Assembly (NCBI GenBank): GCA_943846785.1
Contig: OX044367.1
Location: forward strand, 260,276-324,275
From: an uncultured SAR86 cluster bacterium
GTDB lineage: Bacteria; Pseudomonadota; Gammaproteobacteria; Magnimaribacterales; D2472
Direction of reading: 5' to 3'
DNA length: 64,000 nucleotides
The notes under the pieces: model-generated
The model's database searches: none
Told to the model about the DNA's origin: nothing
Seen by the model: the letters and a program-made list of their open reading frames with translations, nothing else
Shown: piece after piece, positions 20,655 through 28,457 of the stretch
How positions within the stretch are numbered: the first letter of the stretch is position 1
How the letters are laid out: every line of letters starts with the position of its first letter
Made by a program: the position numbers and the translations under genes

Positions 20655-22011
20655 TTAATCCTTTTTCTTAGACCAATCTTTTTTATTTTCTTGTTTGGCT
20701 CTACCAAAACCAAGAGCATTATCAGGGACATCTTTTTGATAACCGAGCCTGCAGCAACTGTTGCGTTTGAACCAACAGTAACTAGGTGCAACTAATGATG
20801 AATTGCTTCCAATAAAACTTCCGTCTCCAATAACAGTTTTGTGTTTATCTTTGCCATCATAATTACAAGTTATTGTTCCAGCTCCGATGTTGGTACCTTC
20901 ACCCACTTCGGTGTCGCCAAGATAAGTAAAGTGATTTGCTTTAGATCCTTTGCCAAGAGTAGAGTTTTTCGTTTCAACAAAATTTCCAACCTTAGCTGTA
21001 TTTTCTATATTACTTCCCACTCGCAACCTTGCATAAGGACCAATAACACAATCGTCCCCAATAATTGCTTGATCGATATGTGAAAAGGCTTCGATTTTAG
21101 AATTGCTTCCAATGACAGAGTCTTTGATAATTGTATTTGGACCTATTGAAACATTGTCTCCAAGTGTAACTGTTCCCTCTAAAATTACATTGACATCTAT
21201 GGAACAATCTTTTCCAGCAGTCAACATCCCCTCTAATATCTAGTCTAGATTTATCGGATATAGTAACGCCTTGATTGAAAAGTTCCTCTGAATTCATTTT
21301 TCTATAAATGGCCTCTAGTTGTGCTAGTTCTTGTTTGCTATTTGCTCCCTTAACTTCATCGTTAGAAGCATTATATGTTTTTATTTTAATACCATTTTGG
21401 CTCAAAATTGAAACTAAATCAGTTAAATAGTATTCATTTGCTGCATTATCATTCTTAATCTCTTTCAAACCCTCTTCTATAAGATCTTTAGAACCGCATA
21501 AAACGCCAGTAAAAATTTCATTAATTTCTTTATCAGACTCCGAAGCGTCTTTCTCTTCAACTATTGCAAGAGCATGGCCACTTGCGTCTTTCTTAACTCT
21601 TCCATAGCCAAATGGGTTCTCTAAAACAGTGGTTAGGATTGAAAGGCCGCTATCTGATGATTTTATTAAATTATCTAATGTTTCTCTTCTTATGAGTGGG
21701 ACGTCTCCATATAAGACAAGAATTTTAGAAGCACTAACAGTTGACTTTAGGCCACACTTTACTGCATCACCGGTACCAATTGCCATAGGCTGCTCAGCAA
21801 TAGAGATGTTTAAAGAATAGTTTTTTGATTCTTCAATAATTGATTCTTTGTCATAACCAACTACCAAAGTAATATCTGGGCTAATAGATCCAGCAGTGGC
21901 GCATATTTTTTGTAACATAGAGCTACCCCCAACCTTTTGAAGGGCTTTAGCTCTATTTGATTTCATTCTTGAGCCTTCTCCGGCTGCAAGTATTATGGTG
22001 TGTAAGCTCAC
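20655..22011 (-). pseudogene. glmU: bifunctional UDP-N-acetylglucosamine pyrophosphorylase / glucosamine-1-phosphate acetyltransferase, three indels
   Basis: ORFs 21097..22011 and 20655..21227 join at ...RLDIRG / LTAGKDCSIDVNVILEG, with a shift within 21221..21236. A second +1 at 20783 and a -1 in the run 20733..20737 garble 17 residues; the correct frame is visible in ORF 20609..20791 (VTVGSNATVAAGSVIKK). Confidence 0.85.
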
Positions 22012-22037
22012 AGTAATTTAAATATTAAATATCTACC

Positions 22038-22451
22038 TTACTGGTTTTTACGTAGTTTTTGAATAGTTTTTAATCTTGCTACAGCTTCGGCTAGTTGAGC
22101 AGCTGCTTTAGCATAGTCTAAAGTCGCATCTTTATTGGCTAAGTCTTGTTCTGCTGATTCTTTTGCTTTAATTGCTTCGGCTTCATCTAGACTGTCTGCT
22201 CTTTCAGCAGTATCGGATAATACTGTTACAAGATCTGGTTGGATTTCTAAAAACCCACCTGAACAAAAAAATGCCTCTTCTTCAGATCCATTTTGAACCC
22301 TGACTGGCCCTGCAGCTAATCCAGTTAATAATGGCGTATGACCAGGAGCGATACCAAGCTCACCAAGAGATCCTGTTGCATAAACCATAGTGGCTTCGCC
22401 AGAATATATTTCTTCATTAGAAGAAACTATGTTGATCTTGATTGTGCTCAT
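22038..22451 (-). CDS. atpC: F0F1 ATP synthase subunit epsilon
   Basis: 137 aa in the operon position after atpD. Typical IVSSNEEIYSGEATMV...GHTPLLT. Confidence 0.9.
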   Translation of the reverse strand: MSTIKINIVSSNEEIYSGEATMVYATGSLGELGIAPGHTPLLTGLAAGPVRVQNGSEEEAFFCSGGFLEIQPDLVTVLSDTAERADSLDEAEAIKAKESAEQDLANKDATLDYAKAAAQLAEAVARLKTIQKLRKNQ

Positions 22452-22453
22452 AG

Positions 22454-23853
22454 TTATAAAGTTTTAGCCTTTTCTACTGCTTCTTCTATAGTTCCAACCA
22501 TATAGAATGCTTGTTCAGGTAAATGATCATAATCACCAGCAAGCAATCCTTTAAATGCTTTAATGGTGTCATCTAAAGAAACATATTTTCCTGGTGTACC
22601 TGTAAATATCTCAGCAACAAAGAATGGCTGTGATAAGAATTTTTGAGCTTTTCTTGCTCTTGCAACCAAGCCCTTATCTTCTTCAGAAAGCTCATCCATT
22701 CCAAGAATGGCAATAATATCTTTCAATTCATTATATCTTTGTAGTATTTTTTGAACTCCTTGAGCAACTGCGTAGTGTTCATCACCAACAACAAACGGAT
22801 CAAGCTGTCTACTTGTTGAATCTAATGGATCTACAGCAGGATAAATACCTAGCTCTGAGATTTGTCTTGATAGAACAACTGTTGCATCCAAATGGGCAAA
22901 GGTTGTAGCAGGAGATGGGTCGGTTAAATCATCAGCTGGAACATATACAGCTTGAATTGAAGTAATAGAGCCTGTTTTAGTAGAAGTAATTCTTTCCTGT
23001 AGAGCTCCCATTTCTTCTGCAAGAGTTGGCTGATATCCAACAGCAGAAGGCATTCTTCCTAATAGAGCTGAAACCTCAACACCGGCAAGTGTATAACGGT
23101 AAATATTATCAATAAATAACAGAACATCTTTTCCATCATCTCTAAATTTTTCAGCCATTGTTAAGCCTGTTAGAGCAACTCTAAGTCTGTTTCCTGGAGG
23201 CTCATTCATCTGACCGTAAACCATGGCAACTTTTGACTCTTCGGGTTTATCTATATTAACAACACCAGATTCTTGCATTTCATAGTAGAAATCATTTCCT
23301 TCTCTTGTTCTCTCACCAACACCTGTGAATACTGAAAGCCCAGAATGCTGAAGAGCAATATTATTAATAAGCTCCATCATGTTAACTGTTTTACCAACAC
23401 CAGCACCACCAAATAAACCAACCTTTCCGCCTTTTGCAAATGGGCACATTAAGTCGATAACTTTAATACCTGTTTCTAAGAATATCATTAGATGCTGACT
23501 GATCTGTATAGCTAGGTGGTTTTCTGTGAATTGGCATTTTTTCTTTTTCGCCAATAGGTCCTTTTTCATCAATTGGATTTCCTAAAACATCCATGATTCT
23601 TCCTAAGAGTTGGTTGTCCAACTGGAACTGAAATAGGCGCATTAGTTCTTGAAACAGCTAAACCTCTTTTTAATCCCTCTGTGACGCCCATGGCAATAGT
23701 TCTGACAACTCCATCGCCAAGCTGCTGTTGAACCTCAAGAGTTGTTCCACTCTCATCGATCATTAAAGCTTCATATACTTTTGGAATATTATTTTTATCG
23801 AATTCGACATCAATAACCGCTCCAATAATTTGTGTAACTGTTCCGTTGCTCAT
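22454..23853 (-). pseudogene. atpD: F0F1 ATP synthase subunit beta, two +1 insertions
   Basis: Start is ATG 23853 ([18 protein letters not shown]) after AAGGAG. Extra plus-strand T at 23604 and 23477. Removing both gives ...[18 protein letters not shown]...[38 protein letters not shown] (Walker A). Confidence 0.9.
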
Positions 23854-23863
23854 ATTTTTCTCC

Positions 23864-26834: not shown

Positions 26835-26837
26835 TGT

Positions 26838-27309
26838 CTATAAATCCTCTGCTGCCTTCTTCAAAATATCATCATGTTTTTCTGGAGATATCTCATCTCC
26901 AAGGATTTTTTGAGTTGTATCAATAATAATCTCAGACATTTGCTGTCTTAACTCTTCTTTTGCTTTGTTGGTTTCATTCTCAATAGATGTTGATGCTGAA
27001 GTCATAATTTTTTCAGCCTCTTCTTCGGCTTTAGACGAAGCATCTCCGACAATTTGCGATGCTCTGGCATTGGCTTTCTTCAGAATTTCTGCAGCCTCTG
27101 TCTTTGGCTTGATCCATTTCTTTGTCAAAAGCTAATTTAGCTTCTTCAAGCGAATCATCTGCTTTTTTAGCAGCCTCTAGTCCATCAGATATCTTTTTTT
27201 CTCTTTCTTGCATGACTTCCAAGATAGGCGGATAGACATATTTCCAGCATATAGCTACAAATACAATCATCACGACTGCTTGGGCAAGTAAGGTTGCGTT
27301 TATATTCAT
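26838..27309 (-). pseudogene. atpF: F0F1 ATP synthase subunit b, one extra base
   Basis: ORFs 27031..27309 (MNINATLLAQAVVMIVF...) and 26838..27128 join as ...FDKEMDQAKTEAAEILKKANARASQIV if one T of the run 27103..27105 is removed. Confidence 0.85.
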
Positions 27310-27320
27310 TCTTTAAATTT

Positions 27321-27542
27321 TTACAGAGCAAATAACATATACATGCCAAGGCCTACACCAATCATAGGTACCGCATCTGTTAATCCCATCATAAGGAAGA
27401 ATCTACCCTGAAGGAAAGGAGCCAACTCAGGCTGCCTAGCTATACCTTCAATAAATTTACTACCTAAAATACCCACACCAATTCCAGCTCCAATTGCTGA
27501 AAGACCCATGGTAATTCCTGCTGCTAAAATACTATATTCCAT
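27321..27542 (-). CDS. atpE: F0F1 ATP synthase subunit c
   Basis: 73 aa hairpin proteolipid. ARQPE loop and the conserved acidic residue in [10 protein letters not shown]. Confidence 0.9.
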
Positions 27543-27565
27543 TTTTTTCTCCTTAAAGTTGAGGT

Positions 27566-28457
27566 TTAATGTTCCTCTGTTTCATGCGCCATTGCCAAAT
27601 ATGCAATGGTTAACGCCATAAATATAAATGCTTGCAGTGCCACAATTAATATGTGGAAAAGCGCCCAAACTAAATGTAGACCAAATCCAACCATGCCTAT
27701 TGGTATGCTACTAAAAAACAACATCAATGCAATTAATATAAATATCATTTCACCTGCATATAAATTTCCAAAAAGTCTTAGGCCTAATGAGATTGGCTTG
27801 GCTATAAAATTAACCATCTCTAAAATAAAATTAACAGGAATCATCCATTTTCCAAATGGATGTAATGTCAACTCTGCTACAAAAGCCTTAGGTCCTTTAA
27901 CTTTGATGCTGTAATAAATTGTTAAAACAAATATTGCCAATGCCATACCAAGTGTTATGTTTGGGTCGGTGGTTGGAACAACCTTAAAATAAAAAGACTC
28001 AGGACTGTTAATCCATGCATGTTCTGGCCACCAACAAGAAAATAAGCGAGTGGCCTGCTAGTACGGGGATAAAATCAACCGGTATTAAGTCCATTAGGTT
28101 CATCAACAATATCCAAACAAAAACAGTAAGAGCAAGTGGAGCAATAAGCTTATTTTTAACAGAGCCAAACAATGATTGCACATTATCTTCTACAAACTCT
28201 ATGCTCATTTCTACAAAGTTTTGAAGGCCGGTGGGTGTTGAATCAGCACTTACTGATTTTGGCATAGCCATTCTAAACAATAATATAAACAGTCCGCCTA
28301 AAAAAATTGACCAAAAAAGAGAGTCTACGTGAAAAGCCCAGAATCCCATTTGATCTACATAATGAGGATCGCAAGTCCATCCTTCTGGAGTTTTTCCACA
28401 AGTAAGGTTTGTTAAATGATGATCAATATATGATTTTGTAGTTAGCTCTTTTGCCAT
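27566..28457 (-). pseudogene. atpB: F0F1 ATP synthase subunit a, one +1 insertion
   Basis: ORFs 28008..28457 and 27566..27946. Removing T28025 gives ...[49 protein letters not shown] (AEH matches E. coli IAEH). [13 protein letters not shown] lies downstream. Confidence 0.85.

Follow-up and report, generated by a model that had tools for sequence, protein, structure and literature searches.

Two sites of programmed +1 ribosomal frameshifting are well known, the yeast Ty1 site, CUU-AGG-C, and the prfB site, CUU-UGA-C. In long-read assemblies, predicted proteins are truncated by single-base indels (10.1101/2021.08.23.457338; PMC9262707; PMC10182627), and a study of marine assemblies built from PacBio HiFi reads with Flye changed its gene caller "due to a higher number of frameshifts" (PMC10877868). 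Moreover, when strains are about 98.7% identical, long-read assemblers that are oblivious to strains merge them into consensus contigs (PMC8302730). We found no explicit description in the literature of SNPs being converted into indels.

The window, the whole stretch of 64,000 nucleotides analyzed here, carries on its minus strand an atpBEFHAGDC-glmU-glmS array that is broken by single-base frameshifts:

22038 to 28457, minus strand: atpBEFHAGDC operon
20655 to 22011, minus strand: glmU (451 aa in relatives), with two 1-nt insertions and one 1-nt deletion
18825 to 20652, minus strand: glmS (608 aa in relatives), split by one extra base, its length being the 1827 nt of relatives plus 1

Within the operon, atpC, atpH and atpE are intact and identical proteins occur on hundreds of public contigs, whereas atpD (two insertions), atpG and atpF (one insertion each), atpB (two deletions) and atpA (three insertions and one deletion) are broken, and the length of each gene equals that in relatives plus or minus these indels. 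We compared the window with 11 distinct contigs from other samples, about 99.5% identical in DNA, in which atpB, atpF, atpA, atpG, atpD, glmU and glmS are full-length or nearly so. Against this set, 10 one-base insertions and four one-base deletions were found at 19.2-28.05 kb, and one intergenic deletion elsewhere (15 events in total, every one of exactly 1 nt); all were absent from the 11 contigs, except for one insertion common to L097. The ATP synthase operon, glmU and glmS of the organism itself are almost certainly ordinary and intact. The events, with surplus bases in square brackets, are as follows:

28027 to 28050, minus strand: atpB codons 137-144, two 1-nt deletions, a G absent between 28050 and 28049 (first position; G, A or T in relatives) and an A absent between 28028 and 28027 (third position; A or C in relatives)
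27102, minus strand: atpF codons 69/70, window AAA[G]ACA, near relatives ACA, L083 and L086 GCA; a first-position A/G SNP
25791, minus strand: atpA codon 166, window GA[G]A TTA; GAA TTA or GAA CTT in 19 of 19 close or moderately close relatives
25652, minus strand: atpA codon 212, window AA[G]A TTA, near relatives AAA TTA, distant ones AAG CTT
25047, minus strand: atpA codons 413/414, window GAT[C]TTA GAT; TTA in most relatives, CTT in L100, L102, L104 and L107, and the identical CTTA insertion in L097
25020 to 25021, minus strand: atpA codon 422, 1-nt deletion between 25021 and 25020 at the third position (A, G or T in relatives, as TTA/TTG/CTT), restoring the frame 26 nt after the 25047 insertion
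24474 to 24476, minus strand: atpG codon 85 (Lys), window GAC AA[A]G GGA TTA, a surplus A within an A-run; AAG GGA in near relatives, AAA GGG in L083, AAA GGT in distant ones
23607, minus strand: atpD codons 82/83, window ACT[C]TTA GGA, near relatives ACT TTA GGA, more distant ones ACT CTT GGA; the window CTTA unites the TTA and CTT codons
23480, minus strand: atpD codons 124/125, window ATT[C]TTA GAA, near relatives TTA, L103, L106 and L108 CTT
21221 to 21222, minus strand: glmU codon 264, window GTT [GA]CT, both alleles present, surplus A or G; among the distinct near contigs, GCT in nine and ACT in two (L095, L098)
20782 to 20783, minus strand: glmU codon 410, window CCT [AG]TT, both alleles present, surplus A or G; GTT in 10 contigs, ATT in one (L095)
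20735 to 20736, minus strand: glmU codon 425, third position deleted between 20736 and 20735 (T or C in near relatives, A in distant ones), restoring the frame 47 nt after the 20783 insertion
19188 to 19191, minus strand: glmS codons 487/488, window CTT[A]AAA GAG, a surplus A within an A-run; CTT AAA in most relatives, TTA AAA in L083, the window CTTA being their union
33135 to 33136, minus strand: trmE/gidA intergenic region, 1-nt deletion in a column that is G in nine relatives and A in one

A sequence-only reading of this DNA had already pointed to frameshifts in the operon, which are present, and had described eight unambiguously placed insertions, always of an A on the coding strand and always between two intact codons. 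A T does lie on the plus strand at all eight of its coordinates, and its removal joins two in-frame stretches with the peptides quoted. The placement is far from unambiguous, since at the seven sites tested between two and seven single-base deletions give exactly the same peptide, corresponding to two to four distinct DNA repairs per site, because the pairs and triplets CTT/CTA/TTA, GAG/GAA, AAG/AAA, GGG/GGA and CCT/CCA are synonymous. Nor is the surplus base always A: against near relatives the inserted bases are three C, three G and four that are A or A/G. The extra bases assigned to 23604, 23477 and 25044 become a C at 23607, 23480 and 25047, those at 25790 and 25651 become a G at 25791 and 25652, and that of atpG at 24470 becomes an A within the run 24474-24476. 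The supposed atpB insertion at 28025 (LVA|EHAW) is actually two deletions, "LIFLLVA" being an out-of-frame reading of VAYFLVGGP, and three further 1-nt deletions (25021/25020, 20736/20735 and the intergenic 33136/33135) had gone unlisted. The chance of about 1 in 6,500 (1 in 6,561) calculated for such phasing presumes that placement was blind to phase, which it was not; "always A, always at the boundary" is the product of free choice among synonymous repairs. When an indel is placed by amino-acid conservation alone, which base is surplus cannot be told.

At the DNA level, the indels match strain polymorphism. In nine of the 10 insertions the window sequence is a union of two alleles that relatives carry, namely TTA/CTT giving CTTA (four times), AAA/AAG giving AAGA or AAAG, and G/A giving GA or AG. 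With all relatives considered, 9/10 compares with a null rate of 0.23 (binomial P = 1.6e-5); with near plus mid relatives, 6/10 with 0.064 (P = 1.2e-5); and with near relatives only, 3/10 with 0.0077 (P = 5e-5). The insertion at 25791 is the sole one without an alternate allele in close relatives, GAG being confined to the wider clade, where 33 of 71 short-read loci have it (e.g., GAG CTT 14 times). Polymorphic columns also underlie all four deletions of the interval and the intergenic deletion, and 14 of the 15 indels fall on population SNPs. In these genes, SNPs among near relatives lie at codon position 3 in 100 cases, position 1 in 11 and position 2 in three, so that, with 111 of 114 at position 3 or 1, a phase-locked look is expected. 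Furthermore, the window differs from the near consensus by 47 synonymous and seven nonsynonymous substitutions, a ratio that indicates genes under purifying selection; 49 of these 54 substitutions are at position 3, and 52 of 54 are common to other relatives.

From these comparisons, we consider it very probable that the frameshifts are assembly errors, in which the consensus of co-occurring strains was collapsed at their SNP sites. The window would be a stretch of a long-read metagenome contig whose consensus at about 19-28 kb presumably drew on reads from two or more strains living together in one marine gammaproteobacterial population. At SNP sites, the consensus would usually have taken one allele, leaving a fine mosaic of two haplotypes, and at about one fifth of variable sites it would have kept both alleles in tandem (a 1-nt insertion) or neither (a 1-nt deletion). 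Since conserved genes are under purifying selection, nearly all SNPs are silent, at position 3 or at position 1 of Leu codons, and a doubled allele at a silent site could always be described as a surplus base between intact codons, with either allele nameable as the surplus one. Both recurring contexts of the sequence-only reading could have one origin in the synonymous Leu pair TTA/CTT: -TTA aligned to CTT- would yield CTTA, its "CTT-A-G", and xxA-TTA against xxG-CTT, aligned as GA-ATTA over GAGCTT-, would yield xxGATTA, its "G-A-TTA". The surplus base looks like A because the AT-rich lineage prefers A-ending codons (TTA, GAA, AAA, GGA).

The error would have arisen in the consensus or polishing step, and the underlying data are probably PacBio HiFi reads put together by Flye in its metagenome mode. 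Such an error could plausibly come from a "median string" effect, in which a hybrid one indel away from both haplotypes may score equal to either of them if the error model penalizes substitutions more than indels; as a counterpoint, minimap2-like scoring would align TTA against CTT as two mismatches.

A mosaic of haplotypes is seen in glmU-glmS (19.4-21.95 kb), where the L095 haplotype and the majority haplotype differ at 34 SNPs. At these sites the window has the L095 allele in 16, the majority allele in 14, a third base in one and an indel in three; all three indels of this stretch fall on the 34 SNP sites among about 2,550 positions. The window switches haplotype 17 times among 32 informative sites, other contigs 0-10 times. 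Compared with L092, the atp region is mosaic too (11 L092 alleles, 24 majority alleles), and its alternate alleles come mainly from relatives that are only 78-90% identical, which suggests a second haplotype matched by no single sampled contig. Since natural recombination also yields mosaics, as in L098 and L100 with 6-10 switches, we regard the mosaic as supportive but not decisive.

Similar errors recur in other contigs. Four long-read contigs (the window, L091, L092 and L097) each get a patch dense in synonymous SNPs (25015-25050) wrong in a different way, whereas the short-read contig L100, from the same population, is free of such errors. Moreover, L092 has three private insertions, each of which makes a CTTA where the clade has either TTA or CTT as its Leu codon. 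Along the window, indels are clustered beyond chance, with 14 in 19.2-28.05 kb and only one in 28.5-36.8 kb, and their density tracks SNP density (18.8-36.8 kb). No indels were found at 36,580-57,935 against six relatives 99.6-99.7% identical; this region (36.6-57.9 kb) diverges by 0.3-0.4% from relatives of other samples, yet is indel-free, a point against the proposed collapse.

The best surviving alternative is a platform error set by context only (motif, homopolymer or methylation) and independent of strain polymorphism, which we judge improbable. Contexts do recur (C before TTAG three times, G before ATTA twice), two or three events lie within short A-runs and the intergenic deletion adjoins a T8 run; but, in the repaired interval, only three of 30 occurrences of TTTAG and two of 29 of AATTA are affected, the affected ones being those polymorphic in relatives. 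The motifs highlighted by the sequence-only reading fare no better, CTTAG occurring nine times and GATTA 21 times in the interval, with only three of each at error sites. In addition, most events lie outside homopolymers, and the 21 kb at 36.6-57.9 kb has a similar composition and zero indels. Among the explanations offered by that reading, a polishing error coinciding with phase came closest, except that context is not the cause and the phase lock is no coincidence, because conserved genes carry silent SNPs, which fall at position 3 or 1 of the codon.

Real mutations, in a strain where ATP synthase, glmU and glmS have become pseudogenes and are decaying, would explain why many frameshifts are concentrated in one gene block, but are very unlikely. 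The substitutions show no relaxed selection (47 synonymous to seven nonsynonymous, 49/54 at position 3), the indels are all of 1 nt rather than varied in size, pairs of them restore the frame after 26 and 47 nt, and the neighboring 21 kb is indel-free. Indels on population SNPs in 14 of 15 cases, with the inserted base being the other allele, are not expected of mutation, and these are single-copy, essential genes of a free-living, abundant population.

It is more improbable still that the indels are truly in the DNA of one strain, with functional ATP synthase, GlmU and GlmS made through repeated frame changes, which would include Ty1-like CUU-AGR +1 slips and up to four changes in one gene. 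Programmed +1 frameshifting, with extra bases in the DNA skipped by the ribosome (e.g., by a slip of peptidyl-tRNA-Leu from CUU onto UUA when the next codon is a slow AGG or AGA), had been entertained as genuine recoding, and merits hardly any credence. The genes concerned are all essential and look functional in other respects, and three sites, taken in the zero frame, give CTT-AGG-A, CTT-AGA-A and CTT-AGA-T, a superficial match to the Ty1-type heptamer. Nevertheless, at every site 99.5% identical contigs lack the extra base; near relatives have no CUU-AGR, since their Leu codon is TTA; and the sites are absent in all near relatives and about 100 further loci. There is no common slippery site, GAG-ATT-A, AAG-ATT-A, GGG-ATT-A and CCT-AGT-T following neither slippery nor hungry-codon logic, while the five deletions among the 15 events would require shifts in the opposite direction and atpA alone would need four shifts. 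No tRNA gene and no Rfam family match were found in the window, although 64 kb says little about the genome. Finally, deliberate or in-silico codon-aware editing, also raised by the sequence-only reading, can be set aside with near certainty. In its favor, the pattern looks regular if insertions are placed by protein sequence. Against it, DNA comparison gives C, G and A insertions plus deletions, the inserted bases are natural alternate alleles, and among public contigs the CTTA at 25047 is found identically in L097, with three analogous ones elsewhere in L092.

The frameshifts have no biological significance; their value is practical. Frameshifts that look phase-locked, admit several synonymous repairs and sit at silent SNP sites of relatives are a fingerprint of collapsed strains, most clearly exemplified by CTTA where a Leu codon is TTA in some contigs and CTT in others. 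In this context, scans of long-read metagenome contigs for "recoding" or "pseudogenes" should compare near-identical contigs before biological conclusions are drawn.

Compared with known systems, the locus resembles reduced endosymbiont genomes, with their decay or slippage-tolerated frameshifts, in having multiple frameshifts in housekeeping genes, but it lacks poly-A slippery tracts, is under strong purifying selection and carries indels absent from the rest of the population. With the programmed +1 frameshifting of prfB and Ty1 it shares three sites that read CTT-AGR; unlike those, the window sites are unconserved, have no shared signal and shift in mixed directions, and relatives have TTA without an extra base. 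Ordinary long-read indels, which are homopolymer-driven and addressed by proovframe and the IDEEL test, are likewise single-base events that truncate proteins, whereas those of the window are mostly outside homopolymers and track population polymorphism, not composition. The closest likeness is to collapsed-strain long-read consensus, in which co-occurring close strains are merged in one contig (PMC8302730) as a chimeric haplotype with local errors and broken genes, seen here as a two-haplotype mosaic with indels exactly at differing sites. As far as the accessible text of that literature goes, collapse, chimerism and frameshifts are described in general terms only; the window would add to it a specific pattern, in which an allele is doubled or dropped where strains differ by a silent SNP, as when TTA/CTT gives CTTA, and which mimics phase-locked insertions.

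On the minus strand of the window the gene order is gidA-gidB-parA-parB-atpBEFHAGDC-glmU-glmS, with dnaA, dnaN, recF and gyrB on the other side; the region is origin-proximal and comes from a low-GC (about 36%) marine gammaproteobacterium. Whole-window scans (1-64000) returned no tRNA gene and, at the gathering threshold, no Rfam family. Within this array atpC, atpH and atpE are unbroken, and atpB, atpF, atpA, atpG, atpD, glmU and glmS are fragmented, their products being full-length in most near relatives (AtpB, 297 aa; AtpF, 156; AtpA, 514; AtpG, 287; AtpD, 465; GlmU, 451; GlmS, 608).

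An AtpD search of GTDB-representative genomes returned distant relatives only (≤87% amino-acid identity), of no use for indel placement. Near contigs were reached by exact-protein look-up with the window's AtpC, AtpH and AtpE, which occur unchanged on hundreds of public metagenome contigs; 11 distinct contigs matched the window at ~99.5% identity across as much as 18 kb, most of them long-read style assemblies and one (L100) a SPAdes short-read contig. Further relatives comprised two contigs 87-90% identical and six at 78-84%. Among the matches listed in an AtpG search of metagenome contigs, the closest reached 88% nucleotide identity; alternate alleles exist clade-wide in these matches, and the window's own second haplotype was not recovered among them.

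Comparison with the relatives by BLAST and MAFFT placed 14 window-specific events within 19,188-28,050, plus one intergenic event, and in every gene the length in the window equals that of the relatives plus or minus the mapped events. In 36,580-57,935 of the window, zero indels were found against six short-read relatives (99.6-99.7% identical).

Window-specific events, by window coordinate (inserted bases and contexts on the coding strand)
23607, insertion of C, window ACT-[C]-TTA
23480, insertion of C, window ATT-[C]-TTA
25047, insertion of C, window GAT-[C]-TTA
25791, insertion of G, GA[G]A
25652, insertion of G, AA[G]A
27102, insertion of G, AAA[G]ACA
24474-24476, insertion of A, AA[A]G
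19188-19191, insertion of A, CTT[A]AAA
21221/2, insertion, GA carried
20782/3, insertion, AG carried
Between 28050 and 28049, deletion
Between 28028 and 28027, deletion
Between 25021 and 25020, deletion
Between 20736 and 20735, deletion
Between 33136 and 33135 (33,135/6), intergenic deletion

The sequence-only reading had described eight surplus bases as unambiguously placed, always A on the coding strand and always exactly between two codons. The frameshifts are real features of the sequence, a T stands on the plus strand at all eight coordinates (8/8), and its removal fuses two in-frame pieces with the peptides that reading had quoted; the always-A and boundary rule, however, did not survive DNA comparison, which also gives inserted C and G, as well as deletions. 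At seven sites tested, 2-7 single-base deletions restore an identical peptide (2-4 distinct DNA repairs), and since conserved residues do not tell synonymous placements of an indel apart, the rule was a post hoc choice. The supposed atpB insertion is in fact two deletions, the peptide LIFLLVA being an out-of-frame reading of VAYFLVGGP. Likewise, the chance figure of (1/3)^8 does not apply, because the boundary rule is one admissible description picked after the fact. Of the 114 near-relative SNPs, codon position 3 accounts for 100, position 1 for 11 and position 2 for 3. Wherever position 3 or 1 carries both alleles, the extra base can invariably be described as lying at a boundary, so that a boundary reading is expected in ~97% of cases. 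As for the base, A is one of the alleles at 52-58% of coding-strand SNPs, and the lineage's own codons at the error sites end in A.

Each event falls on a two-allele site in the population or clade, at which the window holds both alleles in tandem, or neither.

Alleles in relatives and the corresponding window sequence
TTA / CTT, window CTTA (atpD twice, atpA codon 414, glmS)
AAA / AAG, window AAGA or AAAG (atpA codon 212, atpG)
ACA / GCA, window GACA (atpF)
GCT / ACT, window GACT (glmU codon 264)
GTT / ATT, window AGTT (glmU codon 410)

The deleted columns are all polymorphic (G/A/T, A/C, A/G/T, T/C/A and G/A). For the insertions, a union test asked whether deleting another base within 3 nt recreates an allele of the relatives, against 30,000 simulated random insertions, with only changing columns compared and homopolymers normalised. 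With all relatives, 9/10 insertions were explained (null rate 0.23; P = 1.6e-5); with near plus mid relatives 6/10 (null 0.064; P = 1.2e-5), and with near relatives only 3/10 (null 0.0077; P = 5e-5). The sole unexplained insertion was GA[G]A at 25791, where the GAG allele is found only in the wider clade. An earlier version based on an exact 8-mer match per site explained 5/10 and was too strict for diverged relatives.

The same kind of error was identified in other contigs. The patch 25015-25050 (atpA codons 413-422), which has two haplotypes with six silent differences, is broken four different ways in long-read contigs of different samples (the window, L091, L092 and L097) and clean in the short-read L100. 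The CTTA at 25047 is identical in L097. There is a hint, not proof, that the window and L097 are two contigs of one locus assembled from one sample. In L092 all private insertions (3/3) are CTTA at Leu codons alternating TTA/CTT in the clade. Moreover, fragmented yidC, trmE, gidA, parB, atpA, atpG, glmU or glmS were seen in five other long contigs from related lineages (L086, L102, L103, L104 and L107); L086 by itself has, over 14 kb, some 17 single-base indels private to it. This artefact class seems widespread in such long-read metagenome assemblies.

The window is also a mosaic of haplotypes. In glmU-glmS, the L095 haplotype and the majority haplotype are 34 SNPs apart, and of these sites the window matches L095 at 16 and the majority at 14, finely interleaved, while one more holds a third base and the remaining three an indel. 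This makes 17 haplotype switches among 32 informative sites (0-10 in other contigs); the atp part is likewise a patchwork relative to L092. Indel density tracks SNP density, both being high in 19-28 kb and nearly nil in 29-36 kb. Across window 18.8-36.8 kb, near-relative SNPs crowd into glmS, glmU and atpA (4-21 per kb), and next to no variation is seen among near relatives from gidA to yidC (29-36 kb), a distribution that fits recombination tracts beside a variable island downstream of glmS.

This stretch downstream of glmS has the appearance of an integration hot spot, in the position classical for such sites. From glmS to a cadherin-like gene, gene content varies among contigs otherwise 99.5% identical (L081-L100). 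A 62-nt direct repeat lies just beyond the glmS stop (18553-18614 and 18748-18809, 95% identical), and the 18462-18872 region holds an inverted repeat with its second arm within the glmS 3' end. In L084/L094 (ERZ10646527 contig_10011) glmU ends after 87 aa (~window 21761) and glmS is missing, followed by unrelated ORFs and then the cadherin-like gene, either a structural variant or a misassembly removing two essential genes. In L092 (ERZ10646655 contig_14956) homology to the window stops inside atpD (locus ~13650 = window 23182), and phage-like genes follow, including SU10 major capsid and adaptor; a chimera and a prophage junction within atpD are the two candidate explanations. Window 11296-14017 and 14016-16737 are near-perfect tandem copies of a 2,722-bp unit (1 mismatch), whose three ORFs encode a Kdo/RIO1-like kinase, a sulfotransferase-like protein and a 301-aa protein of unknown function. 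The unit is single-copy in near-identical relatives (e.g., L084), and may be an assembly artefact (two strain copies in tandem) or a recent duplication.

Among alternatives, a read error driven purely by context fails on motif counts. The "polishing error" branch is the one candidate cause of the sequence-only reading that found partial support, with polymorphism instead of context as its driver. Error sites account for only 3/30 TTTAG and 2/29 AATTA contexts in the repaired interval, and a motif or methylation cause was abandoned on these counts. The recurring CTT-A-G context corresponds to TTA/CTT alternation, and G-A-TTA to xxA-TTA versus xxG-CTT (aligned GA-ATTA / GAGCTT-), so that both come down to one cause. 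Programmed +1 frameshifting, by which the ribosome would skip the extra base, is contradicted by conservation, signal and direction; a Ty1-like CUU-AGR slip was dropped, since relatives read TTA there. Pseudogene decay fails against selection, as the repaired window differs from the near consensus by 47 synonymous and 7 nonsynonymous substitutions (49/54 at codon position 3, 52/54 common to other relatives), and the inserted bases are known alleles. Deliberate editing fails because public contigs carry the same event kind, one of them the identical event.

The broken genes are almost certainly not a biological feature; the indels are polymorphism-linked, missing from independent assemblies, set in a haplotype mosaic and recurring in long-read contigs. 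We infer that they arose in an assembler's consensus or polishing step fed reads of two or more strains. A hybrid CTTA is one indel from TTA and one from CTT, and therefore could rival both if substitutions cost more than indels. Were the haplotypes present in roughly equal shares, keeping "both" or "neither" allele would become possible. At plausible error rates, a likelihood argument for the polisher predicts near-ties and no clear winner. Such an indel pattern could be useful as a quality-control diagnostic.

Literature searches gave general statements on strain collapse and HiFi plus Flye frameshifts, with no explicit account of SNPs turned into indels among the papers found. One study assembled 30 PacBio HiFi metagenomes by Flye v2.8.3 --meta (PMC10108472); there is a hint, not proof, that the window comes from data of that kind. 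For assemblies made from PacBio data with Flye, a sister study (PMC10877868) reported "a higher number of frameshifts", and strain-oblivious collapse by Flye has been documented (PMC8302730).
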